64,000 bases of DNA from Parcubacteria bacterium C7867-008 (GTDB lineage Bacteria; Patescibacteriota; Minisyncoccia; Phycocordibacterales; Phycocordibacteraceae). This document shows, piece by piece, positions 6,763-58,025 of this stretch (its first letter is position 1; every line of letters starts with the position of its first letter). Made by a program: the position numbers and the translations under genes. The DNA lies in contig LFCR01000004.1 of NCBI GenBank assembly GCA_001189215.1, forward strand, positions 22,153 through 86,152, written 5' to 3'. The notes below the pieces were generated by a model. It ran no database searches. It was not told the DNA's origin and was given only the letters and a program-made list of their open reading frames with translations.

Positions 6763-6957
6763 ATGGCCGATATCTACTGCGACAGCGGAGCAGCCTGTTC
6801 TATCTGTAAGGTCTGTCAGGAAGGACATTCAACGCTTGATTGCCCATCCATCAAAAGCCTCGAAGCATCTGGCTTCTTTGCCGATGATGGAGACCATGAG
6901 CCACTGACCGAAGATGAACTCCGTGAATGCGGAGTACCCAATCTGGTATTCCTGTAA
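6763..6957 (+). CDS. small Cys-rich hypothetical protein (64 aa; CxxxxxCxxCxxC...C)
   Basis: ATG with GGGGAA 6 nt upstream. Divergent from rel. Followed by a strong hairpin terminator. Confidence 0.35.
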   Translation: MADIYCDSGAACSICKVCQEGHSTLDCPSIKSLEASGFFADDGDHEPLTEDELRECGVPNLVFL

Positions 6958-32196: not shown

Positions 32197-32206
32197 TTAT
32201 TCCTGT

Positions 32207-34240
32207 ATGTCAGAGTGGCCACCAACCAAAAGAATAAACAAAAAGGAAGAAGAGGCGCAAGTAGAGCCTGCTGAGACTCATATTGAACTCGTATCACGCA
32301 CCCACGACGCAGGTGAGAAGATTGATGGACTAGAAACATTTCAGGCTACTAACGAAGACTTTGGTCACGAAGCAGATCTGTTGGAGCAAGGGGCAACAGA
32401 ACATTATATGGCCATTGCAGCAGATATACGTGCAAAAGGGGTGGAGCCGAATGATATTAGAGCAGCATGGGGTCCTGCTTATAGTTTGCTTAGTCGTATG
32501 CGTGGTGCAGCACGTTCTTATGGAAAAGCAGAGTCTGTGAAAGATCGTAAGGAGCTCCTAAAGCTCTACAACAAACTTAGCGAAGAACTCTCCACTACCG
32601 TTGCACAAGAAACTAATGCTGCAGCAGACGAATGGCTAGAAGATCACGAACCAAAGGAGGTGCCACCAGAAGCCGGTCTAGAGCAACTAGAAGTTGAACA
32701 GATTTCTGAGGAACCGGTAGAAATGCCAACGGCTCCAGAGACTCCAACCTCTGCACCTGAACCTGTTTCTGAAATAAAGCCTGAGAGAACGGTTCAGACA
32801 GGCATTCCTGGTATTGATATAGATGCCGATGGACCTATCTTCATGCAAAATCCTGTGCTTAATAAACTGTTTGAGGGAAAGCAAAAGAAACCTAAGGCGA
32901 AGAAACCACGTAAGTCGGTGAGTATGGGGGGTGAGACATACCAAGGTCATGTGTTCACTGAACCTGAGTCGTGGATGCGTAAACCAGAAGAACGAGTTGC
33001 ACCGGCACCAATCAGCGCAGATGCAAGTGTTCCAGAAACATATGCAGAACAGAAAGCTGCACTTAGACGAAATGTTGCGGAGATTCAAAGGGATCTCGAT
33101 ACTAAGCAAGCAATACTTAGAGCCTTTTACGCAAATGCTTCAAAGACAGGTGGCATTGTTGAAACCGAACGATTCCAAGCGCATAACGGAGGAACCATTG
33201 AAGATAGTCTTGAAAAGAAGATAGTTGATACAGAAACAGAAGTGCGAAAACTAGAACAAGAGCGTGCAGAGGCACGAGATAGAGAACATAACCCAGTACC
33301 AGAAGAGGTGGTAGAGGCTCCTGTAGATACTGAAAGTCTAGATGCGAATGAGGCACCTGAAATTGAATCAAATGTTGTTTCTAATGAAGAACTTCTTGAA
33401 GCAAAGCGTGCACGTGAACGTGCTCGCGAAGAAGCGAAAAAAGTAAATGCACGAAAGCGTGGAAGACGCGGTCTCACAGGTGCTTTGGCTGGGCTCGTTG
33501 GTTTCTTTGGCATAGCAAGCACCGACAGGAGTGACGCTGCGACCGGTCGTGTTGATGCTACTCGCCAAGCAACTGCAGAAGCTCCTGCCTCTCCAAGCAC
33601 CGCTGCAGGGGAAGGTCCAAAAGGCGTACTTAATGGAGAAAAACCAAGACCAGTTGTTATTCCGAGAAATGCGAGTCCACGTGTTCGTGCAGAGACCGCA
33701 AATATAGATCCTGATCGCTCAAAAGAGATTGCTGCAATATACAAAGCTGAGTCAAAACCAGGTCGCCCTATTCAAGAACAAGGACTTGCACCAGGAACGG
33801 ATGCTCGTATTCTTGATTTCCTTCAAGAACTTGAAACAGAAGAGGCTGCAGCACCTGTCGCAAAATCAGTACCTGCTTCTGCCCCCGCTACAGAAAAGAA
33901 AATATATCGCAGCAAGAATAATCTTGAAGTGCCAGTGCAAGAAACGCATCTATACTCAATTGCTGGAGATGGAGAAGAGTCACTCTTTGTGTATGGGGGT
34001 GGAGATATGAACGATAAGGATTTTCTTGAAGCATTACAAAAGTTCGCGAAAGAGAATCCGGGTAAGACCATATACTTTGATCCCGGCATTAAAACAACCG
34101 TGAATGGAACCTTGCAGTCATACATAGCGTCTGGTGTGTTTGACCCATCAATTGGATCATTCCAAATTGCCGGATTACCTGAGCCTGGGCTTGTTGGAAT
34201 GGTCATAAACCCCGACTCATTCACAAGAATGGTCAAATAG
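32207..34240 (+). CDS. hypothetical acidic protein (677 aa) with a central TM segment
   Basis: The ATG lies 10 nt after the previous stop. Low-complexity acidic, coiled-coil-like sequence. Confidence 0.45.
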   Translation: MSEWPPTKRINKKEEEAQVEPAETHIELVSRTHDAGEKIDGLETFQATNEDFGHEADLLEQGATEHYMAIAADIRAKGVEPNDIRAAWGPAYSLLSRMRGAARSYGKAESVKDRKELLKLYNKLSEELSTTVAQETNAAADEWLEDHEPKEVPPEAGLEQLEVEQISEEPVEMPTAPETPTSAPEPVSEIKPERTVQTGIPGIDIDADGPIFMQNPVLNKLFEGKQKKPKAKKPRKSVSMGGETYQGHVFTEPESWMRKPEERVAPAPISADASVPETYAEQKAALRRNVAEIQRDLDTKQAILRAFYANASKTGGIVETERFQAHNGGTIEDSLEKKIVDTETEVRKLEQERAEARDREHNPVPEEVVEAPVDTESLDANEAPEIESNVVSNEELLEAKRARERAREEAKKVNARKRGRRGLTGALAGLVGFFGIASTDRSDAATGRVDATRQATAEAPASPSTAAGEGPKGVLNGEKPRPVVIPRNASPRVRAETANIDPDRSKEIAAIYKAESKPGRPIQEQGLAPGTDARILDFLQELETEEAAAPVAKSVPASAPATEKKIYRSKNNLEVPVQETHLYSIAGDGEESLFVYGGGDMNDKDFLEALQKFAKENPGKTIYFDPGIKTTVNGTLQSYIASGVFDPSIGSFQIAGLPEPGLVGMVINPDSFTRMVK

Positions 34241-43973: not shown

Positions 43974-44039
43974 AAGGAAGGAGGCGGAAGACCATTACAG
44001 TCGTCCGCCTCGATATTTCCCCAATGTACTTGTGTTTGC

Positions 44040-44402
44040 CTATTCAGCCGCGTGAAGGACCGCCACCGGCTCCTCCAAGGACGATTCCCAACAGGATTCA
44101 CTGCAGAGCAGCGTGATCCTGAAAGCCGGACACTCGTCCGTCGACACGATCACGAAGCGATCACAGGGGTGACCATGCAGCGAATCATCCGGACGGTACC
44201 CACAGTCTCCGTCCTTGATGTGCTTCACGCTGGCGAAGTGCAGCACGTTCACGCCGAGGCGAACGGCGATGCTTCTGAGGAACGAACCTTCTTCATGGTC
44301 GGCGAATCCGCCAGCCATGAAAACACGTTCGCTCTTGAGGTCGATCTCTCCAGAGCCTTTAGCGCGATCACGGACCGCGCGCATTCCTGAAATGCTTACC
44401 AT
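44040..44402 (-). CDS. hypothetical protein (about 120 aa), GC-rich insert between uvrA and uvrC
   Basis: Opposite strand to the uvr genes. About 57% GC. Contains the weak motif RVFMAGGFADHEE. Confidence 0.45.
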   Translation of the reverse strand: MVSISGMRAVRDRAKGSGEIDLKSERVFMAGGFADHEEGSFLRSIAVRLGVNVLHFASVKHIKDGDCGYRPDDSLHGHPCDRFVIVSTDECPAFRITLLCSESCWESSLEEPVAVLHAAE

Positions 44403-44479
44403 GTGTTCTCTCTCCACAAAACCTTAAATACCATAGCGTAATTCGCCCTAATGTCAATTTACTGGCATACTAACTATCT

Positions 44480-45733
44480 ATGCAGCGTGGTGAATTAGCA
44501 AAGTTTGATCTTCCAGATTGCCCCGGTGTCTATCTGTTTACACAGGGTAAAGGGAAGTCTAAGAAGGTCTTGTACGTAGGTAAGGCAACTTCCCTGCGTG
44601 ATCGCGTACGTTCCTATTTTGATATTGAGCTCATAGCTACCCGTGGCCCTCGTATTGTGGACATGGTCACGCAGGCAGATGGAATGATGCACGAAACCAC
44701 ACCTACGGTACTTGAAGCGTTGGTTCGTGAAGCAGCGCTCATTCGTCACTACGATCCACCAGCAAATACCTTAGGAAAGGACGGAAAGTCTTTTCTCTAT
44801 GCCGTTATCACTGATGAGCAGATTCCACGAGTACTTGCGATACGAGGCAAAGATATAGATTTTGATAATCTACGTGCTGGAGAGACCAAACTTAAATCTA
44901 CCTACGGACCGTTCCCGTCCGGCTTCCAGTTACGAGAGGCACTTCGTCTCATACGTCGTATCTTTCCCTTCTATGACACATCACGCCCTGTAGGAGAAGG
45001 AAATAAGCACCTGCAAGCAAAAGTAGAATTCAATCGTCAGATTGGGCAGTACCCAAAAGATATGAGCAAGAGTGAATACATGCGTTCTATTCGTAACGTT
45101 GGTATGTTCCTAGCGGGTAACGTAAAGGCACTTCGTACCCAGTTAACTAAGGACATGAAAGCTGCTGCTAAGGCAGAGAACTTTGAAGATGCTGCAGTAA
45201 TGAGAAAGCAGTTATTTGCACTCGATCATGTTCAGGATGTGTCTCTAATCAAAGAGGATCGTGGAGAAGATAAAGCAGCACCACGAATTGAAGCCTATGA
45301 CACGGCACATCTTTCAGGTACCAATGCCATCGGTGTTATGACAGTGATTGAGAATGGAGTAACGGTAAAGCGAGACTATCGCACCTTCCGCATTCAAGGT
45401 CGAGGAGGTAAGTCTACCAATGATGATATTGCATCTCTTAAAGAGATACTTTCACGCCGTCTAGGGCACCCAGAATGGCCTATGCCACGAGCAATAGTGG
45501 TGGATGGTGGTAAGACACACAAGAAGGCTGCAGAGGATGTCCTGTCTCAGTATCAGATTGGTATACCAGTAGCAGCGGTAGTGAAGGATGATAAACACCG
45601 CCCCCGTGAAGTGCTTGGTGCACTACGAGCTGGTATCACTGAAGCGGATGCAGTCCTTGCTAACAGTGAAGCGCACCGATTCTCCATAACACTTCACCGT
45701 AAAGCTCGGTCCAAAAGCATGCGTAAAGGATAA
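44480..45733 (+). CDS. uvrC: excinuclease ABC subunit C (short form)
   Basis: N-terminal GIY-YIG (GVYLF...VLYVGKA), UvrBC-interacting region, and RNase H-like endonuclease EAYDTAHLSG. No C-terminal HhH. Confidence 0.8.
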   Translation: MQRGELAKFDLPDCPGVYLFTQGKGKSKKVLYVGKATSLRDRVRSYFDIELIATRGPRIVDMVTQADGMMHETTPTVLEALVREAALIRHYDPPANTLGKDGKSFLYAVITDEQIPRVLAIRGKDIDFDNLRAGETKLKSTYGPFPSGFQLREALRLIRRIFPFYDTSRPVGEGNKHLQAKVEFNRQIGQYPKDMSKSEYMRSIRNVGMFLAGNVKALRTQLTKDMKAAAKAENFEDAAVMRKQLFALDHVQDVSLIKEDRGEDKAAPRIEAYDTAHLSGTNAIGVMTVIENGVTVKRDYRTFRIQGRGGKSTNDDIASLKEILSRRLGHPEWPMPRAIVVDGGKTHKKAAEDVLSQYQIGIPVAAVVKDDKHRPREVLGALRAGITEADAVLANSEAHRFSITLHRKARSKSMRKG

Positions 45734-45777
45734 CTTCCTTGACGTATTTCTATACAGGAGTATCTTCACTTCTACGG

Positions 45778-46135
45778 ATTGAGGCACCGGTACCGATGGG
45801 ACCACCGTTGCTGTCCGTAGGGGGAGTTCACATGGACTTTGTTTTTAAGTTGCGTTGTAGCGTGAGGTAGCTGGCCACCGATTGCCAGTGATCCTTACGC
45901 GGCGGTAATCACAGCCGGGCACATTCTGCTGGCACAGCCGCCACCAGCAAACCCCCGACCGACTTGCACTACCTGGGCACATAGGCGGAGCATCGGGTTA
46001 CAGAACAGGGATACATACCTCCAAAGGCGTGACCGCTATACGCGCACGCGATGCCTTCAAAGGCTGGAAGGGAGTAACACCGGGGCGACGCAGCTGCCAC
46101 ATGCAGCAACGCGTCGCCCCATTCCTTTTGACTGC
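45778..46135 (+). ncRNA. candidate structured ncRNA or gene remnant (family not identified)
   Basis: A roughly 360 nt GC-rich region with no credible ORF. Promoter-like TTGACG-16-TATCTT at 45741-45770. Internal stems. Ends in a strong terminator. Confidence 0.25.
46082..46130 (+). terminator. hairpin ggggcgacgc-N19-gcgtcgcccc plus attcctttt
   Basis: Perfect 10 bp GC stem followed by a T-run. Confidence 0.6.
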
Positions 46136-46149
46136 TATACTCTTTTCAT

Positions 46150-47133
46150 ATGCGTGGCACAGTAGTTGGAGTATTGCGCGGAGGTCCTTCACGAGAACAT
46201 GAAGTGTCACTTGCCAGTGGTCATGCGATCATCGCCAACCTTCCAAAGGAACACTTCACCGTTCGTGATATATACATAGACAAGCAAGGTGTGTGGCATG
46301 AACGTGGTCGTGTAGTAACACCACATCGTGCACTTCATTCAGTGGATGTGGTCATCGTTGGCCTCCACGGTGAATATGGAGAAGATGGAGAAGTACAGAA
46401 GCTCCTAGAGAAGAGTGGAGTTCCATACACTGGCTCAGATTCCTTTTCATCCTTTGTGGCAATGCACAAAGTGCTTTCTAAGGAGAAAGCAAAGCAAGCT
46501 GGACTCAAGACTCCCAACTACTACTACATAGAAGAAAGTACTCCACCACATCATGTGGAGCAGATGTTGCGTGATGTCGTGCGAACGTACCCACAACCAG
46601 TAGTGGTGAAGCCAACACGATGGGGATCATCCGTAGGGATAACTATGACAACGGGCTATGCACCACTTCATACCGCTGTAACAGGCCTTTTGGCGCAAGG
46701 AGCAGGTGGTGTATTGGTTGAAGAGTATATAAGAGGGACTGAAGCCACCACCGCAGTAGTAGAGGATATGCGTGGAGAGAAACTCTATGCACTACCATCA
46801 ATAGAAATCATTCCGCCAACATCAGACTTCTTCTCTTATCAGGCAAAGTATTCAGGCGACACACGAGAAATCTGCCCAGGACGTTTTGATAAGCAAACAC
46901 ATGCAGAACTAGAGCGTCAGGCACGCCTTATGCACGATGTACTTGGTCTCAGACACTATTCACGTTCTGATTTCATCGTCACCCCTAAAGGTATCTACTA
47001 CCTTGAAACCAATTCTCTGCCTGGATTAGCCCCCGAATGTCTCCTACCCAAGTCCCTTGATGCGGTAGGGGTATCATTCAGTGATTTCCTATCCCACTTG
47101 GTTGCACTTGCACGGGCAGGCAAGAAACGGTAA
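46150..47133 (+). CDS. ddl: D-alanine--D-alanine ligase
   Basis: ATP-grasp with an N-terminal Ddl domain (VLRGGPSREHEVSLASG). Confidence 0.85.
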   Translation: MRGTVVGVLRGGPSREHEVSLASGHAIIANLPKEHFTVRDIYIDKQGVWHERGRVVTPHRALHSVDVVIVGLHGEYGEDGEVQKLLEKSGVPYTGSDSFSSFVAMHKVLSKEKAKQAGLKTPNYYYIEESTPPHHVEQMLRDVVRTYPQPVVVKPTRWGSSVGITMTTGYAPLHTAVTGLLAQGAGGVLVEEYIRGTEATTAVVEDMRGEKLYALPSIEIIPPTSDFFSYQAKYSGDTREICPGRFDKQTHAELERQARLMHDVLGLRHYSRSDFIVTPKGIYYLETNSLPGLAPECLLPKSLDAVGVSFSDFLSHLVALARAGKKR

Positions 47134-47169: not shown

Positions 47170-47214
47170 TGCGGGCCGTTAGCTCAGTTGGTAGAGCGCT
47201 TCATTTGCAATGAA
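47170..47214 (+). pseudogene. truncated tRNA-Ala(UGC) gene, 5' half only (acceptor 5' strand, D-arm, anticodon stem-loop TTTGCAA)
   Basis: GCGGGCCGTTAGCTCAGTTGGTAGAGCGCTTCATTTGCAATGAA. No T-arm or acceptor 3' strand downstream. Overlaps the 3' end of the recombinase gene. Confidence 0.55.
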
Positions 47215-48685
47215 ATAACTTCTCGTCAAAAAGGAAGAAATAGAGACTGTGCTGCTCCCGTGTGTTGAGCTTGGTCCATATAGAATATGGCCTTTCGACC
47301 AACGTCTTTGATTTCTTTAGAGCAGTTTGAAATGGAATCGCAAAGTCCAATTTCGCACCCGATTCTGCCTCCAGTCCCTCTATCTCGCGGGCAGTCTGCT
47401 CCATTTCATGTTCGTATACATCCCTCAACTGTTCTGTCTTTGCTCGATAGGCCATATCAGCTAAGCCTCGTAGTTTCTCCCGTAACTTCTCGATTTTATG
47501 CGCATGAGTTGCCTCACGTTTTCCAACCTCAGCGATCTCCTCTTTCCAAACCGCTCTAAATACCTCCTCTACAACTTTAGAAACAGAAGGTTTGAGCTTC
47601 GAGGCGTGCATAACCTTTAAGAAATTACCTTCCAGCTCGGCTTTCTTTATAGACTTATTTTTAAAAACACATCCGGCAGTTTTACAAAGATAATACGGGT
47701 ATCTGTTACCATTATGGTTCTTACTAAAGGCTGCTGTTAATGATGCGCCACATACGCAGTTAATTAAGCCGCGCAAAGGGAAGTCAGATGATATATCCTG
47801 GCGCACCCATTTTGATACCTGAACCTTTTGAAGCCGCGCCTGAGTGGCTTCATAAGTGTTTGGAGAAATAAGTCCTTTATGGTGGCCCGGTCTGCGGCTA
47901 ACCTCCCATTCGATGTGCTCCACATAACCAGCGTAAAAAGGATCTTCAAGTAAGCTAGTAACTTGGGTGATATAGCTTTCGGGCGCCGGCCTCTTCCAAA
48001 AGCCTTTATCAATTAGATAGCGCGCCATATCAACCTTACGGACTAGCTTTCCATCAGCAAAGGCCTCTAGGGCCGGTTTAAGCACGTCCAAGCCCTCCCT
48101 GGAGGGCTCCAGGACCTTTGTGGTCTTGTTTCTTTGGTAGCCACGTTTTGTACCGCCAATGCAGTAGTAACCCGCCTCCATGCGCGCCTTCATTTTCTGT
48201 ATAACCTGTCTTCTGTTTTGCTCTCGCTCAAGCTGAGCCTGTGCTGCATGTATGGTCTCTATAAACCTAGCCTCGGGACCTTCGTTAAATGCAAAGTTAG
48301 GGCTTTCTGGTCGAGCTCCCCTAGCCTCAATTTCTAACCTGAGTTCAAGATAAGCCTGAGTGTCGCGAGCAATACGCTTCATGTCATCAAACAAAACAAC
48401 GTAACTTCTATGCGGGAACTTATCCAAGTACTTCAAGAGTTGAACAACACCAGCTCTGTTCCTAAAATCCCCGCCGCCCGTGAAGACATCTTGGAATACC
48501 TCGTCAATCTGATAGCTTCTTTGTTGCGCGTACTCTCTACAGCGAGCCTCTTGTGCTTCCATCCCATGACCTTCAGACGCCTGCTTGTCAGAAGAAACCC
48601 TGCAATAGATAACCGCATGCTCCTCAACAGAAGCTGATGTGGGTTGCAGTGTAATGTTACTTTTTTGTTTGGGCTTTTTGGACAT
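47201..48685 (-). CDS. large serine recombinase (integrase)
   Basis: N-terminal resolvase catalytic motif AVIYCRVSSDKQ, recombinase domain, zinc ribbon (CVCG...CKTAGC), and a C-terminal coiled coil. Confidence 0.85.
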   Translation of the reverse strand: MSKKPKQKSNITLQPTSASVEEHAVIYCRVSSDKQASEGHGMEAQEARCREYAQQRSYQIDEVFQDVFTGGGDFRNRAGVVQLLKYLDKFPHRSYVVLFDDMKRIARDTQAYLELRLEIEARGARPESPNFAFNEGPEARFIETIHAAQAQLEREQNRRQVIQKMKARMEAGYYCIGGTKRGYQRNKTTKVLEPSREGLDVLKPALEAFADGKLVRKVDMARYLIDKGFWKRPAPESYITQVTSLLEDPFYAGYVEHIEWEVSRRPGHHKGLISPNTYEATQARLQKVQVSKWVRQDISSDFPLRGLINCVCGASLTAAFSKNHNGNRYPYYLCKTAGCVFKNKSIKKAELEGNFLKVMHASKLKPSVSKVVEEVFRAVWKEEIAEVGKREATHAHKIEKLREKLRGLADMAYRAKTEQLRDVYEHEMEQTAREIEGLEAESGAKLDFAIPFQTALKKSKTLVERPYSIWTKLNTREQHSLYFFLFDEKLFHCK

Positions 48686-48944
48686 AGCTGTCTATTTCAT
48701 TTCGTGTGATCGTTCTGCAAAACTCTTCTAGGTATCGCAGTTGCTCAAGTACTTCTTCATCACTACTTCGATAATCATTAAGGATGTTACGAAAACGCTC
48801 TATTTTGATTATAGACCTGGATTCATGAGCAAACTGAGGCTGCCTGATATCAGCCTCAACGTTTACAAATGTTAACAATGGTTTTTTACGGTTTTTCCGG
48901 GTCATTTGTGTGACCTCGCAAGATAGAAAAGCAAAAAACTCCAA
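48657..48944 (-). CDS. small hypothetical protein upstream of and overlapping the recombinase start (possible regulator or directionality factor)
   Basis: The ORF overlaps the recombinase start by 29 nt. An internal ATG at 48905 gives an 82 aa product. Confidence 0.4.
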   Translation of the reverse strand: MEFFAFLSCEVTQMTRKNRKKPLLTFVNVEADIRQPQFAHESRSIIKIERFRNILNDYRSSDEEVLEQLRYLEEFCRTITRNEIDSYVQKAQTKK

Positions 48945-49157
48945 AACCAGATGCGCCTCTTATGAGGTGCACTTAGTTTTGGAGCCTTACTACTTACGGT
49001 GTCTTCCGTTTGTTGATCACGTCTTGCGACGCGTCCTATTGGCCTGTTTCTTTTCGCCGGCGGGGCCTGCTTAGAGTATAACCCAAAAGTACTGCATGCT
49101 AGGATATGCTAGGAACCAGCGCCTAAACCTACCAATCTGGTAGGCATGGCCAAATAA

Positions 49158-49311
49158 AACCTACGCGAGCAGAAGCGGCCTCATAGGCTGGCTCTACTCG
49201 CGTAGGTCGGGTGTCTCGAAAGGGCCCCGGGTGATGTCCGAAAGGGTGTCATCGCCGGTTCTGTGGGGCCGCTTCTGCGTACCTACAGATACGGATTACA
49301 AAACCTACGCG
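49158..49311. repeat. cluster of direct and inverted repeats: aaacctacgcga x2 direct plus one inverted copy, and a gcagaagcggcc/ggccgcttctgc inverted pair
   Basis: Seen directly, with mutually exclusive pairings. It sits in a 375 bp non-coding gap inside the putative element. Confidence 0.5.
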
Positions 49312-49318
49312 AACTAAT

Positions 49319-49537
49319 ATGAACACAAGAAAAGACGGACTTCTATCCGTAAAGGATTGGACCAGGAATGAGTATGGCCGGAATGCGCTGATCGCGTTAC
49401 TTGGTGGCCTAGTGCTCAATATGTCAGGTTATACGATTGGAGAGGTGTTTGGTTCAATACTGGCTCTGCTTGGGTTTGGATTAGGGGTAATATGGGCCTA
49501 TTTGAAGATAAGCAAGAAGGAGCCGGCATACAAATAA
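49319..49537 (+). CDS. small membrane protein (72 aa)
   Basis: Two TM helices. Confidence 0.4.
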   Translation: MNTRKDGLLSVKDWTRNEYGRNALIALLGGLVLNMSGYTIGEVFGSILALLGFGLGVIWAYLKISKKEPAYK

Positions 49538-49595
49538 CACTTTGACATTTGCAATCAGCATGTCCTTGCAGACTGGCTTCATGAAGCTACAATGA

Positions 49596-50789
49596 GTGTA
49601 CATGGATGCAAACACCCTACTCGAACTTATTCAACTGCTTGAAGCAGACGAAGGGCAGTTTACTATTGGCGCCCGCATAGAAGAGATAAGGACGCTTCTT
49701 TCTCAGAACGATCCAGCACAAAGTACAGCAATATCTACAAAACTAACCGAACTATTTACCGAAATAGCTTCCAGTAGGGCAAACCTTTTTAGCCAGACAG
49801 AGCTCGCAATCCTCAAAGGTCTCGATGCGGTTGACTACTTCGGAAGTGGATTGACCCAAGCACTTACAGAAATTACATCTGGATCAAAGACATACGAGCT
49901 TACATCTCGGCTTAGCGAGTTCTACACAGAGCGCAGTACAAAGTACAACAAGCTAGTCCAAATGAAGAACTCCATGCTGGAGAATGGCTTGGTAGCATAT
50001 GAACAAGAAGAAGATGAAATTGCTCTTACTATCCCAGGAAAGGAGGTGGATGCCTCAGAGCTCGCAGAGCATCTAAAGACATTTTCTGAATTCCTTCGTG
50101 CGGTTCAGGAGTGCACGCTTCCAGCAGGCCAAACGCCAACACCGGCAGAGATTGTGCGTGTAAGTCGAGGTAGCCTGAACTTTTTCGCGCAGGTAGATCC
50201 TGCAACACTAAAGGCTGTTCTGGAGATTATCGGCTCCCTCGCAACAATTTACCTTGCTGGAGTTGATATACGTAAGAAATTCAACTCAAAAACTCCTTTA
50301 AGTGAAGATGAGCAGGCCTCAATAAATCAGCTGGCTGAGACAATAGCGCAGAAGCGGGTGGATGCCTTTGTGGCTGAGACGGCTGCAAAACTGGCTAAGG
50401 ATAATCATGAACTCGGAAATCGAGTAAGTCGTTATTTGAAAATCCTTATAAAGTGGATGCCGTTAGGCATACATCTTGAGGTTGTCGTTGCAAAGACCGT
50501 TGAACCTGTCGACCTTAAAACAAGTGAAGGTAAGCAGATAAGGGCAAAACAGGCGACACTTCTGAAGGTAAATGAGATGTATAGCCTACCTATGGAACAC
50601 CTCAAGCTCCCTGAACCGCAAATAGCCGAGCAAGACGTAGCTATTCCGGCAGAAGAACCAACTGTTCCAATTGAGCCAGAACAAGAAGTGCCTATCGAAC
50701 CAGTGGCGCCCGCTGAACCTGAGAAGCTAGAACCAATGACAGAAAAAACTGTCGAAAACAGTCCTGAGCCAGATGAGCCAAGTGCGTAA
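49596..50789 (+). CDS. hypothetical alpha-helical protein with an acidic Pro/Glu C-terminal tail (397 aa)
   Basis: First gene of the three-gene operon. No catalytic motifs. Confidence 0.55.
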   Translation: MYMDANTLLELIQLLEADEGQFTIGARIEEIRTLLSQNDPAQSTAISTKLTELFTEIASSRANLFSQTELAILKGLDAVDYFGSGLTQALTEITSGSKTYELTSRLSEFYTERSTKYNKLVQMKNSMLENGLVAYEQEEDEIALTIPGKEVDASELAEHLKTFSEFLRAVQECTLPAGQTPTPAEIVRVSRGSLNFFAQVDPATLKAVLEIIGSLATIYLAGVDIRKKFNSKTPLSEDEQASINQLAETIAQKRVDAFVAETAAKLAKDNHELGNRVSRYLKILIKWMPLGIHLEVVVAKTVEPVDLKTSEGKQIRAKQATLLKVNEMYSLPMEHLKLPEPQIAEQDVAIPAEEPTVPIEPEQEVPIEPVAPAEPEKLEPMTEKTVENSPEPDEPSA

Positions 50790-50802
50790 ATGAAATCATT
50801 AA

Positions 50803-51417
50803 ATGATCTGGTATTACCACCATCATCCTGAAGTTCTTTCGCTCGTAAAGGATTTGGCTACGATATCAGCGGCCATAATTGCTTCATACGTTGCTCTTGC
50901 AGGTTTAGGTGCTTGGAAAAGACAATTGCACGGAAAGGAAGACTATCAATTGGCGAGACGTTATTTACGCGAGGTATATCGTTTGCGCAACGGTCTTAAA
51001 TCAGTAAGAAATCCTTATATATCAGTAGGAGAAATGCATGCAGCATTGAAGGAAAGCGGTGAAGAAAACCCAGACCCTATCGCCGATAGAAAGAAAACAG
51101 ACTTCGCTGTCTACAGCCGAAGATGGGAAGAAGTAAAGCAGGCGTCAGTTGCTCTTGATGTCGAGCTTCTCGAAGCAGAGGTACTCTGGGGCAAAGAAGC
51201 TGTTTCTAAGCAGAAGCCCTTGCGTCAAAAATCCAACGAGCTATTTAGTGCATTACAACAGCATCTAAATGAACGTCCGCGTGTGAATATAGATGATTTA
51301 CTGTACGACGCAGGCGATAAGGATAAATTCACTCTTCAAGTTGAGGAAGCTATAAAGCCCATAGAAGAATACTTGGCCCCGCATTTGAAAATAGAAGGAA
51401 GAATCTCAACAAGCTAA
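50803..51417 (+). CDS. hypothetical membrane-anchored protein (204 aa, one N-terminal TM)
   Basis: Its stop overlaps the next start (ATGA). Confidence 0.55.
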   Translation: MIWYYHHHPEVLSLVKDLATISAAIIASYVALAGLGAWKRQLHGKEDYQLARRYLREVYRLRNGLKSVRNPYISVGEMHAALKESGEENPDPIADRKKTDFAVYSRRWEEVKQASVALDVELLEAEVLWGKEAVSKQKPLRQKSNELFSALQQHLNERPRVNIDDLLYDAGDKDKFTLQVEEAIKPIEEYLAPHLKIEGRISTS

Positions 51418-52151
51418 TGATTTCAAGAACCCGTCTCGACCGGATCGCTTTTCTTTCGTTTCAAAATGCTTTGCGTCTGCATCATGATGCAATAATCCTC
51501 TTTAAGGAGAAGAGTTATCCATCGGCTTTTTTCCTTTCAATACTTGCGCAGGAAGAGATAGGGAAAATGCACCTTGTTAATGATCAGTCATGGCGTTCTG
51601 GAGAAAATGAAGCTGGGTTGGCTGAAATCAAGGACGAAGTCAAAAAGAAAAAATACCAGGCAGAATTGGAGAGTATGGAAGAATATGTAATTAAGGCTCT
51701 GTATCAACATCCACTTAAGCAAGGACACTTTTATCGTAATTCTCCAGCGGAAGAGCTGTGGATTCCGAAGAAAGGGAAACTCAGAAAGGAGTACCAAGGC
51801 ATCTGGGATGGAATGCTTGAGGCAAGAAAACAAAACGCTGTGTATGTTGGCTTTGCAAGAAGGAGAGGGAAGATAGATACCACTAGACTTCACCATCCTT
51901 GGGAAATTACGAACGGAATGGCCGCAAGTCATATCACCAGAGTAAATGATTATCTATTGGTTTTTGGGTTGGGTTTAAGATATACGTCCTATGCGTATGA
52001 GAACGAGGAAATAGTTTCAATGATTAAGCATAGACGCTTTTTGAAGGAGATTGCTGCTAGTTGGATGCGTAGCGGTACGTTAGCTCAGAAGGAGATAGAG
52101 AAGCTCGAAAGGGCATTAAAGGATCCAATAGTTTCTGACGCTCGATTTTAA
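51417..52151 (+). CDS. AbiV-like abortive-infection family protein (putative)
   Basis: N-terminal FQNALRLHHDAIILFKEKSYPSAFFLSILAQEEIGK resembles the AbiV family signature. Assignment is from memory of the family alignment. Confidence 0.4.
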   Translation: MISRTRLDRIAFLSFQNALRLHHDAIILFKEKSYPSAFFLSILAQEEIGKMHLVNDQSWRSGENEAGLAEIKDEVKKKKYQAELESMEEYVIKALYQHPLKQGHFYRNSPAEELWIPKKGKLRKEYQGIWDGMLEARKQNAVYVGFARRRGKIDTTRLHHPWEITNGMAASHITRVNDYLLVFGLGLRYTSYAYENEEIVSMIKHRRFLKEIAASWMRSGTLAQKEIEKLERALKDPIVSDARF

Positions 52152-52301
52152 ATCCTCTTCTGTGGTAGCAGATGGGAGAAATCCTTAGTGTTCCGCAAGG
52201 GCTAATTGCAATGGAATGCACGTTTGATAGTAGTCCCAGAAGCGAGATAGATAGCTTTTTAAGGAGTTCAAAGTCTTGATTGATATGTCCACCCAAACAA
52301 G

Positions 52302-52330
52302 AAAAGACCCCGCAAGGGTCTTTTCTTGTT
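52302..52330 (+). terminator. hairpin aagaccc-cgcaa-gggtctt plus ttcttgttt
   Basis: Perfect 7 bp stem plus T-run. Confidence 0.65.
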
Positions 52331-52355
52331 TCAATCACAACCATATACTTATGAC

Positions 52356-52862
52356 ATGGAAGGCCCTCCCCCAAAGCTCGATAAGCAACCTGTAAACTCA
52401 GAAGATATAGCAAACCCGAACAGAATATTTGAGTGGGGTTTTATGCCAGACAATACTGATGTTCCAACAAAACCAGAGAATGTATACAGACAAATCAAGG
52501 TAGAAGGAGTCGATGATCTTAATGAGAGTGGTGTGGTACGAAATGCAGGAAGTGCAGGAAAAGGACGAGTACGTAAATACGGAGACCGTGTGTATTGGAC
52601 ACAAGGTAAAGAGGGAGAATTTCATAATGTACAACCAGGCCACGCGGTACTTGAAGCACCGCTATCTGTTGTAAGTTCCCGTGTGGTGACTGCAGAGGAC
52701 ATCATTGGTATTCATGTACGCAATGAAGCAGGAGAGGTTGAGAACCGCGCCCGCGCCATACCTGAAGTAGCTGTTGATGCATCAGGTACTGAGCAGAAAC
52801 CAGAAGAAGGTTCTAATCTAGAAGATGTTCGAAATAGGCTTGGTTTGTCTCCAAAGGAGTAA
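52356..52862 (+). CDS. hypothetical protein (168 aa)
   Basis: The track ORF starts at a TTG inside the terminator; it is trimmed to the ATG at 52356. Confidence 0.45.
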   Translation: MEGPPPKLDKQPVNSEDIANPNRIFEWGFMPDNTDVPTKPENVYRQIKVEGVDDLNESGVVRNAGSAGKGRVRKYGDRVYWTQGKEGEFHNVQPGHAVLEAPLSVVSSRVVTAEDIIGIHVRNEAGEVENRARAIPEVAVDASGTEQKPEEGSNLEDVRNRLGLSPKE

Positions 52863-52872
52863 TTTAGATTCT

Positions 52873-53055
52873 ATGCACACTGAATTAATAGCTGGAGCAG
52901 CATATTTGTTTAATTCAGGTCTACGCGAAGGAATGAATGATCCCATTCACGCGCTGTATACAATGGTTGGTATTGCGGTGCTGGTTGTGGCTGGAATCTC
53001 CGTTGGAGTGTATAGGAACAGACAAAAAAGAATGAAGAAACGTGATTCCTGGTAG
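52873..53055 (+). CDS. small membrane protein (60 aa)
   Basis: Single TM plus basic tail. Confidence 0.35.
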   Translation: MHTELIAGAAYLFNSGLREGMNDPIHALYTMVGIAVLVVAGISVGVYRNRQKRMKKRDSW

Positions 53056-53056
53056 A

Positions 53057-54181
53057 TCAAGCGCGCTTGAATATAAAGCGTGAAAGTACAAGAAAGCTTT
53101 CAACAGCAATAATGAGCGCAGCAATTGCCTGCGCCAATATGTACCAAACTCCTAGGTAGTGCACGAGAAGGAATACAATTCCCGTATTTAGAACAAGATT
53201 AATGGAAGCAACAAGCAAGTGTAAGGGAACTTGTATTGCAGTAGATTTTTGATGCTTGTAGTTGAAGGTCCAGTACTTGTGGAGAAGGAAGTTAGCTATT
53301 CCTGAGGTTGCAAAAGCAACAATTGATGAGATTAGATACCAGACATGGGAGATGTCGGTAAGGAGGTAGAGGACAGTAACATTAACCAACACGCTTATAG
53401 CTCCTGTAGTGAGGAAACGTAATGCCTTAGGAACCTCTTTACCCATGGGGGCGCTATGTATACCAAGTCTGAAGAACACGATCGCTAGGAGGCAATATAT
53501 GCCATGTCTGGCACGTATCTTCTTTCCTTCCGTGACGGTACGCGGATGGTAGGTGATTGGCACTTGAGCAACGGTACCTGCGTGCTGGAGGATATATGTC
53601 ATCTCAATAGCATCAAATACGAAGTCGTCACTAGGAGCTTCTAGGAGTGCTGGTATGCGCTCTCGAGGGAAGACTTTGTAGCAACACGGAACGTCCTTAA
53701 ATGAGCTACTGAAGGCAAGATTATAAAACGAGGAAACAACACGACCTCCAAAAAACAGCATGCGATTGCGATGAGCATCTTCTTCGGTAAGAGTGCGGTA
53801 TCCAAACACGGTATCTACCTTTCCTTCAATGATCGGAGCAAGTAAAGAAGGATACTGACCTGGATCAATCTCAAGGTCTCCATCTTGAATGATGCAGTAT
53901 GCACCGGTTGCATTACGAAGACCTTCCTTAACCGCACCTCCTTTGCCGAGGTTCTGGGGAAGATACACAACCTGTACGGTATTCCCTGCATCACCAGATG
54001 AAAGTGTACCCAATGCTGCGTGTGTTTCTTCGTTAGATCCATCATCCACAACAATAATCTCTTTGGACCAGCCAGAAGGAAGTCCTGTTGCAATGACTCG
54101 TTCAACAACCAATGCAATAGTGTCAGCTTCATTGAAGCAAGGAATGATTACACTCAGGAGTGTTTTCGGAGTGTTACTCAT
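53057..54181 (-). CDS. family 2 glycosyltransferase (Dpm1/GtrB-like) fused to a GtrA-like C-terminal TM domain
   Basis: LSVIIPCFNEA...VVDDGS GT2 motifs. C-terminal 4 TM GtrA-like region. Confidence 0.75.
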   Translation of the reverse strand: MSNTPKTLLSVIIPCFNEADTIALVVERVIATGLPSGWSKEIIVVDDGSNEETHAALGTLSSGDAGNTVQVVYLPQNLGKGGAVKEGLRNATGAYCIIQDGDLEIDPGQYPSLLAPIIEGKVDTVFGYRTLTEEDAHRNRMLFFGGRVVSSFYNLAFSSSFKDVPCCYKVFPRERIPALLEAPSDDFVFDAIEMTYILQHAGTVAQVPITYHPRTVTEGKKIRARHGIYCLLAIVFFRLGIHSAPMGKEVPKALRFLTTGAISVLVNVTVLYLLTDISHVWYLISSIVAFATSGIANFLLHKYWTFNYKHQKSTAIQVPLHLLVASINLVLNTGIVFLLVHYLGVWYILAQAIAALIIAVESFLVLSRFIFKRA

Positions 54182-55775
54182 AGAATTTTACGAGTGCATA
54201 CTTCCCAGACCGCACCACAGCTCTCTTCTCACAAGACGCAACACCTTCCGTGAAGTCCGTCATATCAATGAAGCCGTATTGAAGATCATGTGCCTTTCCA
54301 TAGTCTGCAAAGGCAACACAATCCTTTGTTTTAAGTACATCACGTACTTCGTTGTATCTAGCAAACCACTGGTCCGCTGCGTCCCCATCATATAGAGCCA
54401 CGTTACCATCCTTAGAAGACACGTATGTTGGCTTATTAGCGTATGCGCGTATGAGATTTGCTTCACCATTTGGATTAGCAAGAATCATAGTTTGAGGTCT
54501 AAGAAGAGTATCAACTTCAACGAGTGCAGAGATGAGTTCCTTTGTATCTTTAGACTCCCTATATCCGTCACTAAGCCCCTCAACAACATTCATTACAGAT
54601 GTCTGCGCGCAAAGTATGCCTATGAGTAGTACAGCAAAGATGACCTTCATCCTGCGACTAGTTCCAAACTTAGCCGTGAAAAGTATGTATCCATACGTAC
54701 CAACAAGAACCATTGATGAAAGGTAGAACCATACAGAAGCTCGAGCCAACAGATACTTTGCATACGGTGTGAACTCAAGACCAACACCAATAAGAGAAAG
54801 GATAAGCGTGCTCCACCACAGAGCCATCCACACAGTCATAGAAGGTCCTTCTGGTAAATTTTTCTCTCTACGACACCAGAACCATAGTCCAAGCACGAGT
54901 GCTACATAAATAATCTGCTTACGGAGATAGTGCAGAAGAAGATAGGACCACGAGTGCAGTACTGCCGTGTAGTGATCAAGGATTATGGATGGATTGGGAG
55001 GTGAGAACTGTCCTATACGGAAAAACACATCATAGAGCGCAAGGGGAGCAGCAGCTAAGAACACGAGTCCGTATGCAATGAACTCAAGCTTGATAGAACG
55101 TGTTCGTATAACCTCAGCAAACAAAACGATCATCGCCACATGGAAGAAGATAACGGGATACCAGTTCGATAGAAGACCAAGCAAGGCAAAGAAGATAAAG
55201 AACTTCTTTCGTGAGCCCCCCTCAACTGCTTTGAAATACAGAATGAGCAACCAAACAATAATTCCAAGTCCTAATTCCTTAGGTACAAAGCCTTTCACTA
55301 AGAACCCCCAGCCAGACAATCCCAAGGATATAACGGGAATAATGCTAACTAGTGCAATACAGAAGGCGAGTACTCTGTTACGTGTTGTATAGAGAACCAA
55401 TGAATAGACTCCGCTCAGGAATATAAGAAGGGAAATAGTAGATATAAAAATACTCCAATCCAGTACTCCTACGCCAAAGAAGTCTCCAATACGAACAAAC
55501 ACGGCATCGATAAACAACTGCCCGGTTGGCCAGGAACGATTATTTTGGAACATGACATCGTTCTCAAAGTTTCCTGCGTACGAGGTAGAGAACTCAGTCC
55601 AATGGACTGCATGTACGAAGGCGTCAGAAGAGAGTTGATATTTAAGGGGTACTCCAGAAACAGCTAGAAAGGAGATGTTAAGCAGGAAGGCACAAAAGAA
55701 TACGATAGCGATAAGAATAAGATCAGTCTTGATCCGTGCGAGTCCCTGCCAGTGCATTGCATGGAAGTATAGCAA
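54174..55775 (-). CDS. polytopic membrane protein, GT39/GT83 (PMT/ArnT)-like glycosyltransferase candidate
   Basis: More than 10 TM helices plus a C-terminal soluble domain. Overlaps and is co-oriented with the GT2 gene. Confidence 0.45.
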   Translation of the reverse strand: MLYFHAMHWQGLARIKTDLILIAIVFFCAFLLNISFLAVSGVPLKYQLSSDAFVHAVHWTEFSTSYAGNFENDVMFQNNRSWPTGQLFIDAVFVRIGDFFGVGVLDWSIFISTISLLIFLSGVYSLVLYTTRNRVLAFCIALVSIIPVISLGLSGWGFLVKGFVPKELGLGIIVWLLILYFKAVEGGSRKKFFIFFALLGLLSNWYPVIFFHVAMIVLFAEVIRTRSIKLEFIAYGLVFLAAAPLALYDVFFRIGQFSPPNPSIILDHYTAVLHSWSYLLLHYLRKQIIYVALVLGLWFWCRREKNLPEGPSMTVWMALWWSTLILSLIGVGLEFTPYAKYLLARASVWFYLSSMVLVGTYGYILFTAKFGTSRRMKVIFAVLLIGILCAQTSVMNVVEGLSDGYRESKDTKELISALVEVDTLLRPQTMILANPNGEANLIRAYANKPTYVSSKDGNVALYDGDAADQWFARYNEVRDVLKTKDCVAFADYGKAHDLQYGFIDMTDFTEGVASCEKRAVVRSGKYALVKFYE

Positions 55776-55801
55776 AGATATCTATGCGTTATACTGACGC
55801 C

Positions 55802-56206
55802 ATGAACACGAAACTCATAAAACTATTCTTTATAACGTTGCCTATATTGGCAGTAATAGACTTCTGCTGGGCCGGCATACTCGCTACTGATTTCTATCGC
55901 GGACAGGTGGGAGATTTACTCTCAATGAATCCAATCCTTCCTCCACTGGTTCTCTTCTACATTATCTACACGGCAGCGGTTGCATACTTTGTAATCAGTC
56001 CTGCACTAGCTGTTCGTTCATACAAGTTACTTGTCATTAACGCAGCGTTCCTTGGTCTGACCGCATACGGTACCTATGATCTCGTTACGCTTGGTCTCAC
56101 ACCCGGATGGACCCCCCTTGTTACCGTTGTAGATATTATTTGGGGTATGGTACTTACCACCGCAGTTTCTTCTATCGTGTACGCAATCGCTATACGTTGG
56201 AAGTAG
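55802..56206 (+). CDS. small integral membrane protein (DUF2177-like?)
   Basis: 4 TM helices. The family name is tentative. Confidence 0.45.
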   Translation: MNTKLIKLFFITLPILAVIDFCWAGILATDFYRGQVGDLLSMNPILPPLVLFYIIYTAAVAYFVISPALAVRSYKLLVINAAFLGLTAYGTYDLVTLGLTPGWTPLVTVVDIIWGMVLTTAVSSIVYAIAIRWK

Positions 56207-57420: not shown

Positions 57421-57969
57421 ATGAAGCCAAAGGCTCTCCCTCCTACTCTCACTGAACGCGTAACGACGTGGATCGGTTCACGCATGTCACTTGTTGCACA
57501 TACGATATTCTTTATCGGGTGCTTCTTCACTGTGGTACTTGGACTTATCACTCTTGAAACTATGCTCCTTGTTCTCACCACAGCGGTCTCTCTTGAGGCC
57601 ATTTATCTTGCCATCTTCATTCAGATGACGGTTAACGCTAACACCGCTAGTCTTCGTGAAGTGGAGGAAGACATTGAAGAAATTCAGGAGGATGTGGAAG
57701 AACTGGGAGAAGACTTGGATGAGATTCAGGAAGACATTGGAGAGATTCAGGAGGATGTCGAGGAAATCAGCGAAGACATCGATGAAATTCAAGAAGACGT
57801 TGAGGAGTTGAGTGAAGAGGAGGAGAAAGAGAAAGAAGAAGCTGCAAAGCCAAAACGTAAGACAGTAAAAAAGACTACAGCAACAGAAGCAGAACTCCTT
57901 GAGCAGCTCTCACAAGATGTTGCTAAGCTTCTCGCAGATCTAGAGGCACTAAAGAAAGGTAAGAAATAG
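57421..57969 (+). CDS. DUF1003-like membrane protein with acidic EEIQEDVEEL tandem repeats
   Basis: Two TM helices, then 4-5 copies of a roughly 8 aa acidic repeat. The track ORF N-terminus, which overlaps mltG, is rejected. Confidence 0.5.
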   Translation: MKPKALPPTLTERVTTWIGSRMSLVAHTIFFIGCFFTVVLGLITLETMLLVLTTAVSLEAIYLAIFIQMTVNANTASLREVEEDIEEIQEDVEELGEDLDEIQEDIGEIQEDVEEISEDIDEIQEDVEELSEEEEKEKEEAAKPKRKTVKKTTATEAELLEQLSQDVAKLLADLEALKKGKK

Positions 57970-57973
57970 CGAA

Positions 57974-58001
57974 ACCCGCCCGGTCTAGGACGCGGGCGGG
58001 T
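57974..58001. terminator. hairpin acccgcccg-N10-cgggcgggt
   Basis: Perfect 9 bp GC stem between convergent genes. Confidence 0.55.
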
Positions 58002-58025
58002 GATAGCTGAAGAGTCTGTCGACCG

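Follow-up and report, generated by a model that had tools for sequence, protein, structure and literature searches.

The locus studied here is the gap between uvrC and ddl in Parcubacteria bacterium C7867-008, which was analysed within a stretch of 64,000 nt of this genome, hereafter the window. The uvrC gene (44480-45733, + strand), whose product bears UVR and UvrC RNase H endonuclease domains, ends with its stop codon at 45733, and the ddl gene (46150-47133, + strand), whose product has both the N and the C domains of D-Ala-D-Ala ligase, starts at 46150, which leaves a gap of 416 nt (45734-46149). The G+C content of this gap is 0.555, with a local peak of 0.615, against 0.471 for the whole window, and it is the highest among the 13 ORF-free gaps of at least 150 nt in the window; an earlier inspection of the letters by a model, here called the sequence-only reading, had likewise placed it above the coding neighbours. 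That reading had also seen no credible ORF, and neither do we, as the start-to-stop ORFs in the gap reach at most 57 aa and overrun the promoter, the terminator or ddl. The genome bin of C7867-008 comes from oxic Hanford groundwater and has 808 kb with 48% G+C; about 90% of the genome is coding, and pseudogenes are reported as few in such genomes (PMC4508563). The DNA of the element in the gap has two further occurrences in the searched sequences, a JGI contig and a Logan contig, both 100% identical, and none besides, and the strain variants sought for population-level covariation turned up as identical copies alone. The element is an orphan known solely from identical C7867-008 copies, and tandem repeats or arrays were not found in it.

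Just past the uvrC stop codon, a sigma-70-like promoter is predicted on the + strand (45739-45766), consisting of a -35 hexamer TTGACG (45739-45744), a 16-nt spacer and a -10 hexamer TATCTT (45761-45766), downstream of which transcription would start at about 45773-45775. The same two hexamers had been pointed out before, though at 45741-45770, a place that has to be corrected. They match the consensus at 9 of 12 positions, and promoter-like hexamer matches as a whole are not enriched across the region (5 seen vs 8.4 expected). The pattern TTGAC-N16-18-TANNNT, however, has just three matches in 64 kb, each directly 5' of a unit, namely tRNA-Trp, a 125-aa ORF and the element, and about 1% of the 75-nt windows in related loci contain a promoter-like pair of such quality. 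Under a strict definition, at least 9 of 38 units in relatives have a promoter at the same position, compared with about 1% of random 75-nt windows, and by eye strong TTGACA promoters are seen there in relatives' units. A hairpin of 49 nt follows at the 5' end of the predicted RNA (45772-45820, + strand), built of an outer stem CTACGGA/TCCGTAG and inner stems. Its folding energy is -24.3 kcal/mol (z = -3.3) with none of 200 shuffles equally stable, and it makes up the sole 5' 100-nt sub-window with z < -3 (z = -3.6), on the + strand only. The outer stem had been noticed in the sequence-only reading as well; its arms lie at 45772-45778 and 45814-45820, enclose 35 nt and not the 38 nt then given, and form the outer part of this longer hairpin. 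The U-run that was said to follow the stem proves to be TTTGTTTTT (45838-45846), 17 nt away and inside a short ORF, where it supplies Phe/Val codons, and it is no terminator tail.

This short ORF is a putative micro-ORF of 12 codons (45832-45870, + strand), whose translation would give MDFVFKLRCSVR before the stop codon. A Shine-Dalgarno (SD)-like GGGAG (45822-45826, + strand) stands 5 nt upstream of its ATG, and by its sequence the ORF is translatable. Among 16 ORF-less units found between uvrC and ddl, units that were picked after inspection, 10 have an SD core with an ATG on the + strand and none on the - strand, whereas shuffles give a mean of 2.25 and a maximum of 7 in 500 trials; the micro-ORFs in these units have 4-28 codons. 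A '+x+' stalling motif (R/K-x-R/K), spotted by eye in the micro-ORFs, was abandoned, as it cannot be told statistically from composition.

At the 3' end of the element, an intrinsic terminator is predicted (46082-46131, + strand), with a 10-bp stem GGGGCGACGC/GCGTCGCCCC (arms at 46082-46091 and 46111-46120), an inner 5-bp stem and the tail ATTCCTTTTGA, exactly as the claim of a terminal hairpin with a T-run had it. The hairpin has -31.4 kcal/mol and z = -7.5, with z about -5 in 100-nt windows, its pairing probability within the full transcript is about 1.0, and the T-rich tail is present on the + strand only. Between the micro-ORF and the terminator lies a central segment (45875-46075, + strand) that is C/A-rich, with G+C about 0.60, and is without excess folding or coding signal. 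For the central 146 nt, z is -0.93 and 41 of 200 shuffles fold equally well, and the 100-nt windows give z = -2.0 at 45850-45949 and between +0.7 and -0.6 over 45875-46100. Since the centre folds like shuffled sequence, its high G+C is unexplained by structure, and could simply reflect a foreign origin. Folds of the whole gap, the first that were made, gave z = -4.4 on the + strand and -1.4 on the - strand; for the whole predicted transcript the values are -3.15 and -0.85, where background windows have -0.71 +/- 1.58 and 10 of 120 are lower than -3.15. The description of the region as a structured one of about 360 nt is thus right for the 5' hairpin and the terminator but not for the centre (about 150-200 nt with z near 0), and the element is not clearly structured as a whole. 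Its layout, with a promoter 5' and an intrinsic terminator 3' on the + strand and no long ORF, is that of an sRNA-type unit whose transcription is a prediction.

The right boundary of the element, already outside it, is the extended -10 of ddl, TGCTATACT (46133-46141, + strand), with 12 nt between it and the terminator hairpin and with the ddl ATG at 46150. As a TGnTATACT element 8 nt before the ATG, and without SD, it is alike in relatives with and without an insert. Moreover, 90 out of 142 distinct relatives show a -10-like hexamer at a distance of 4-11 nt before ddl, in 70 cases with TGn, and none carries an SD-like 4-mer. From this pattern ddl looks leaderless and self-sufficient, and because of its own conserved leaderless promoter geometry, the element would not be needed for ddl expression. 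The expression "upstream of ddl" in the sequence-only reading is accordingly valid as a position and nothing beyond, ddl having its own conserved -10 element. A target-site duplication or a duplicated ddl promoter was considered as well, as TGACCGCTATAC (46030) resembles TGACTGCTATAC (46129), and it was rejected with about 0.3 such 12-mers expected. We observed besides that TTCCTT..GAC..CTATAC is present at both ends.

The element does not belong to a known RNA family as far as Rfam covers them. At gathering thresholds no match is obtained in the region, nor in the loci of 16 relatives, and a search of 45600-46300 on both strands at E<=10 with relaxed filters yields only two matches at chance level, a Hairpin ribozyme (15.8 bits, GA 65) and mir-1207 (15.8 bits, GA 90); in the whole window the Rfam matches are tRNAs and LOOT only. 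ARAGORN finds no tmRNA in the window, and the SD-led micro-ORF has no typical tag ending. Thus the judgement made by eye, that the region is not RNase P RNA, tmRNA, SRP RNA or a cobalamin element, is confirmed by Rfam, with nothing real at E<=10, and by ARAGORN for tmRNA; a resemblance to RNase P P4/ACAGAA, also noticed by eye, was dropped. On the protein side, the stop-free segments of at least 25 aa in six frames have no match at E<=10 among 5.8 billion proteins, the frames of the gap give nothing in Pfam at E<=1, and the longest frame in an exhaustive HMMER search matches three proteins, all of which are tandem-repeat artefacts. The G+C of the three codon positions is flat in the gap (0.60/0.60/0.53), compared with 0.61/0.41/0.38-0.44 in the neighbouring genes and 0.63/0.44/0.67 in the equally G+C-rich neighbour orf125, the local periodicity range of 0.136 is at the level of shuffles (mean 0.152), and the stop-free frames are almost without Lys or Glu. 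A protein pseudogene, which the sequence-only reading had set against an ncRNA, therefore did not emerge, with no homologue for any frame and no codon periodicity. A pseudogene of the Cys-rich cassette family, which other genomes encode at this site, was considered in particular, from LRC, TD and GYIPP read by eye in frame +2, and was discarded, as an HMM of six members of the family scores no frame of the window.

To place the element in a phylogenetic frame, we compared 80 loci from GTDB, 80 from metagenomes and 7 contigs from the relatives closest by Ddl. The order uvrC then ddl is conserved in the clade, and the gap between them ranges from 13 nt to 3 kb across 137 syntenic loci, being at most 60 nt in 60 loci, 61-150 nt in 14, 151-700 nt in 45 and more than 700 nt in 18. 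The closest relatives each have a different gap: it is an ORF-less 284 nt in L003 (Ddl identity 89%), only 14 nt in L163 and 28 nt in L167 (both 83%), about 740 nt in L164 (84%), where it includes a 157-aa gene on the opposite strand, 1094 nt with a homologue of the same gene in L004 (82%), and 355-406 nt, by the ddl start chosen, with a 98-aa ABM-like gene in L168 (82%). Elsewhere the cargo includes nucleoside-diphosphate kinase (NDK), HicAB toxin-antitoxin, a Cys-rich protein family and further ORF-less units. In the alignments, homology ends at the uvrC stop codon and picks up again at the TGnTATACT of ddl. Many cargo units open with a strong promoter, its -35 adjoining the uvrC stop or overlapping it, and many close with a hairpin and T-run just before the ddl -10; the element is laid out alike. 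In relatives where the gap is short, uvrC is followed by no terminator. In Kaiserbacteria-like Parcubacteria, the junction between uvrC and ddl forms a hypervariable slot.

No homologue of the element could be detected in relatives by blastn, nhmmer, tblastx or shuffle-calibrated Smith-Waterman alignment, the best local-alignment P of 0.005-0.015 among 38 comparisons being the multiple-testing expectation. An 11-mer common to the element and L085 (AGTTGCGTTGT after CACATG) has E = 1.5 and was set aside. Phages, plasmids and viral contigs contain no match of the element either, and 10 viral matches to the terminator-stem pattern share nothing further with it. Neither the conservation nor the covariation by which an ncRNA was to be recognised is therefore to be found, the element being without a homologue in more than 160 related loci as well as in phages, plasmids and viral contigs. 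As for the closest relative L003, whose unit aligns with the element at P = 0.56, its uvrC and ddl have just 52-55% identity to those of the window at third codon positions, so that unconstrained DNA would be unalignable at this distance; an initial wording of non-orthologous replacement relative to L003 was softened on this account, as lack of alignment does not prove non-orthology. In the sequence comparisons we see no sign of constraint on the element. Other ORF-less units in the slot behave differently: those of L013 and L086 are 65% identical, compared with 38-46% at third codon positions in the genes on either side, and those of L022 and L025 are 71% identical against 59-62%. As these units are more conserved than third codon positions, an ORF-less unit can be functional in the slot, with the L013/L086 unit under purifying selection.

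Besides these parts taken one by one, the 3' end of the micro-ORF and the terminator are complementary to each other. A segment made of the micro-ORF 3' end plus 3 nt (45852-45873, + strand) can form 20 pairs with 46091-46112 (+ strand), that is, with the loop and the start of the 3' strand of the terminator, at -34.2 kcal/mol vs -31.4 kcal/mol for the terminator's own hairpin. It is the strongest terminator partner among all upstream 24-mers (median -13.4 kcal/mol); when the upstream region is shuffled, 12 of 1000 sequences contain a partner as good, and when only Watson-Crick pairs are counted, 7 of 300 shuffles equal the complementarity. If the transcript is cut before the terminator 3' strand, the MFE structure pairs 45852-45873 with the terminator 5' strand, while in the full-length transcript the alternative fold costs 12.5 kcal/mol relative to the MFE, with its arms 217 nt apart. 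The L013/L086 units, unrelated to the element, have the same complementarity (rank 4/77 and 1/81), and their best-conserved blocks are the micro-ORF end and the terminator; most other ORF-less units do not have it. The test was post hoc, devised after the repeat had been seen, and applies to one sequence without conservation support, with which limits the complementarity may be regarded as the signature of a translation-sensitive terminator.

Taking these observations together, we tentatively prefer, at somewhat less than an even chance, the interpretation that the element is a strain-specific and independently transcribed unit of the + strand, whose RNA would have about 355 nt and include a micro-ORF. 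The sigma-70-like promoter just past the uvrC stop would drive this RNA, roughly from 45774 to 46130, which would start with a protective 5' hairpin, bear the SD-led micro-ORF and run on through the G+C-rich and C/A-rich stretch without detectable structure, until the strong intrinsic terminator ends it and thereby may insulate the leaderless ddl promoter immediately 3'. The unit would then be one cargo of a slot that in relatives is empty or occupied by small protein genes or by other ORF-less units. In its favour, the promoter, the 5' hairpin and the terminator are each better than chance and all on one strand, and the compact genome with little pseudogene evidence gives a prior against junk; against it, the central part is no better folded than shuffles, and the closest relatives carry a different unit, a protein gene or 14-28 nt in its place. 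The anatomy of the element, its strandedness, its orphan status and the absence from it of a known family or a coding signal are direct observations. What we infer from them is a transcribed unit with a translated micro-ORF and a functional RNA, most likely a small regulatory RNA or a micro-ORF mRNA rather than a riboswitch or a large structured RNA.

The sequence-only reading had left the choice between an unidentified ncRNA and the decayed remnant of a foreign gene, of which neither is proven; we somewhat favour the ncRNA-like side, though not in the form of a large highly structured RNA. The remnant nevertheless makes the main rival, somewhat unlikely as we consider it and without positive support from homology or periodicity. 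It supposes an acquired small-gene cassette of which the promoter, the 5' UTR, the SD, the ATG and the terminator survive while an ORF of about 80 codons was destroyed, leaving a non-functional unit that awaits deletion. The constant turnover of cargo in the 137 loci would suit such a fate, all the more as intact cassettes in the slot have the same promoter-SD-ORF-terminator layout and a similar length, and the 250 nt from the ATG to the terminator would fit a gene of about 80 aa. Moreover, the G+C of 0.56-0.61, which folding does not explain, is like that of the neighbouring and probably acquired orf125 (0.58), the enrichment of SD and ATG in ORF-less units is the residue to be expected of truncated genes, and the element is an orphan. 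However, no frame has a homologue in the 5.8 billion proteins, in Pfam or among the cassette proteins of relatives, the matches of the longest frame being tandem-repeat artefacts, and no codon periodicity remains either globally or locally, which a recent GC-rich gene should keep; the stop-free frames are besides almost devoid of K and E. Pseudogenes are reported as rare in these genomes (PMC4508563), and the complementarity of the micro-ORF and the terminator is not readily due to chance.

The same complementarity is the basis of another explanation, namely that the element acts in cis as a translation-sensing leader of ddl, a ribosome-mediated attenuator. Here a ribosome that finishes the 12-codon ORF would mask 45852-45873 and let the terminator form, while with failed or early-stalled translation this segment would pair with 46091-46112, so that no terminator forms and transcription reads through into ddl. 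The micro-ORF is SD-led, no other upstream segment is as good a partner of the terminator as its 3' end, which also pairs with the terminator 5' strand in the truncated transcript, the unrelated L013/L086 units have the same property, and the terminator is directly 5' of ddl. Yet ddl has its own extended -10 and no SD whether or not an insert is present, and a gap of at most 60 nt in 60 of the 137 relatives, together with closest relatives that have nothing similar, is unexpected for the regulator of an essential gene. With the energy cost and the distance of the alternative fold, the lack of such complementarity in most other ORF-less units, and a test devised after the repeat was seen, we regard the attenuator as unlikely. 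A broader version, which we consider distinctly unlikely, would put the element in a class of fast-evolving RNAs with SD-led micro-ORFs in the Kaiserbacteria-like uvrC-ddl slot, in which translation of an ORF of 6-19 codons decides on the terminator and so couples the ribosome status to transcription across the ddl promoter, by read-through or occlusion. It is very unlikely, in turn, that the element is just a long 3' UTR of uvrC with its terminator, the promoter hexamers and the micro-ORF having arisen by chance. The imperfect hexamers and their lack of regional enrichment would permit it, and the terminator would suit uvrC equally; but relatives with short gaps do without any terminator after uvrC, many relatives have a promoter-like pair at exactly the same position, the background being about 1%, and the 5' hairpin begins right at the predicted transcription start. 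Least of all do we believe in a highly diverged known large RNA, such as RNase P RNA, tmRNA, SRP/6S RNA, a riboswitch, a group I/II intron fragment or an omega/HEARO-type guide RNA, which is extremely improbable. Its length of about 355 nt, the tiny internal ORF and an ACAGAA-like motif give it by eye a superficial likeness to tmRNA or RNase P RNA, but Rfam at E<=10 has no real match on either strand and none in the loci of 16 relatives, ARAGORN sees no tmRNA, the centre is unstructured, neither an adjacent partner protein nor tandem repeats are present, and the closest relatives lack the element, which is impossible for an essential RNA.

Compared with known systems, the preferred small-RNA-like unit comes near to the orphan, strain-specific sRNA genes of bacteria, which likewise have a sigma-70-type promoter, a 5' stem-loop, no long ORF and a Rho-independent terminator; like theirs, its conservation ends at the strain, and it has a C-rich single-stranded stretch including ACCUCC (46017-46022). 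For an sRNA, however, it is long, and it is G+C-rich without excess structure. It also shares with the dual-function sRNAs, for example RNAIII/hld, SgrS/SgrT and SR1/SR1P, a very short SD-led ORF in an otherwise non-coding RNA with its own promoter and terminator, though its ORF has just 12 codons and no detectable homologues, and the likeness is one of architecture only. In the ribosome-mediated attenuators, of the trp/his type as well as in erm, cat and ARE-ABCF leaders, the 3' part of the leader ORF can pair with the terminator in a mutually exclusive way and the terminator directly precedes the gene, of which the latter is the case here and the former may be; unlike them, the element has arms 217 nt apart and no run of regulatory codons, the downstream ddl has a leaderless promoter of its own and no SD, and the element is not conserved with ddl. 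The same window contains a LOOT RNA (RF03000, 49120-49253), another G+C-enriched and ORF-free unit of this genome. LOOT, however, is conserved as a family and has a covariance model, while the element fits none and has no sequence in common with LOOT. As for the slot, conserved flanks (the uvrC stop and the ddl -10) with a cargo that varies among close relatives, TA modules and small genes included, recall integration hot spots, from which it differs in that no recombinase, att-like repeats or target-site duplication could be linked to it. A serine recombinase is encoded on the far side of ddl from the slot. To sum up, sRNA-like orphan units in variable slots between genes are familiar, and the element adds to them a new and unclassifiable instance.

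The importance of the element itself is limited, because it is without relatives and its function is putative. Provided that it is transcribed, it would join a very small number of candidate regulatory RNAs from uncultured Parcubacteria with reduced genomes. The slot, with its ORF-less units enriched in SD-led micro-ORFs, may be more useful than the element, as it offers a defined place to seek small RNAs and micro-proteins in CPR metatranscriptomes.

The genes bordering the variable gap between uvrC and ddl differ in their initiation signals from the small genes that it carries in related genomes. Upstream of ddl, TGCTATACT lies 8 nt before the ATG (window 46133-46152), and it is kept in more than 90 relatives (loci L003-L169), without a Shine-Dalgarno (SD) sequence; for uvrC, TGGCATACT is likewise found 8 nt before the ATG (window 44457-44482). 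These core genes look leaderless, whereas the cargo genes of the slot bear strong GGAGG SD sites. The uvrC product itself (44480-45733) is only 417 aa in length, and such a short UvrC, of 417-422 aa, is common to the whole clade; Pfam assigned to it a UVR motif and an RNase H-like endonuclease domain, while neither GIY-YIG nor the C-terminal HhH domain was detected by the same search.

A second variable slot is located between uvrA and uvrC (43974-44479), where a 125-aa ORF lies on the minus strand (44040-44417) with its own promoter, TTGACA-16-TATGGT (44457-44430, minus strand). This ORF is rich in G+C (0.58), has a clear codon periodicity (0.63/0.44/0.67) and matches no Pfam family. A homologue with 59% identity is present in the relative L003; in other relatives, unrelated ORFs of 88-124 aa occupy the position. 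On the other side, an island of about 9 kb (47201-56200) separates ddl from the syntenic yceG and ATP-synthase genes; it contains a large serine recombinase (47201-48685, minus strand), a LOOT RNA (49120-49253, plus strand, 61.5 bits), an AbiV/HEPN abortive-infection protein (51417-52151), a GT2-GtrA glycosyltransferase and unknown proteins. Relatives have a tRNA and small ORFs there instead, and the strain's own JGI contig breaks off 61 nt past ddl. In the window as a whole, further long ORF-free gaps are found at 10836-11434 (599 nt), 32197-32686 (490 nt), 57603-58025 (423 nt) and 14669-14863 (195 nt), and 357-nt windows at 6800, 29900, 56150 and 48800 fold strongly, with z from -3.7 to -7.2, all lower than that of the uvrC-ddl element; in these gaps and windows Rfam matched nothing but the LOOT RNA, near 48800-49250.

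The core of the ddl promoter (TGACTGCTATAC, 46129-46140) has a near-copy inside the uvrC-ddl element, at 46030-46041 (TGACCGCTATAC), and the two ends of the element (45735-45755 and 46122-46140) share a looser TTCCTT..GAC..CTATAC likeness. These resemblances could be a trace of how inserts originate at this site, or they could be due to chance, which would by itself yield about 0.3 12-mers of this kind.

Closely similar terminator stems, GGGCCGGA...TCCGGCCC followed by TTTC, close non-homologous units of different species in this slot (L016, two units in L017, L020, L023, L059, L085 and L133), which may reflect a preference for this terminator across the clade, or else a boundary element that the units have in common. 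Some ORF-less units in relatives' slots (L013:3664-3975 and L086:467-791; the uvrC-ddl gaps of L022, L023 and L025) are conserved between species above the level of synonymous sites: sequence identity between the L013 and L086 units is 65%, as compared with 38-46% for third codon positions, and both units have an invariant 23-mer, UUCGAAGUAGUCCCGCGCUGGGA, which overlaps a micro-ORF and mimics the 5' strand of the terminator. Of these loci, L013, L022 and L023 were scanned with Rfam, which gave no match; the units are candidate members of a new family of RNAs or micro-ORFs.
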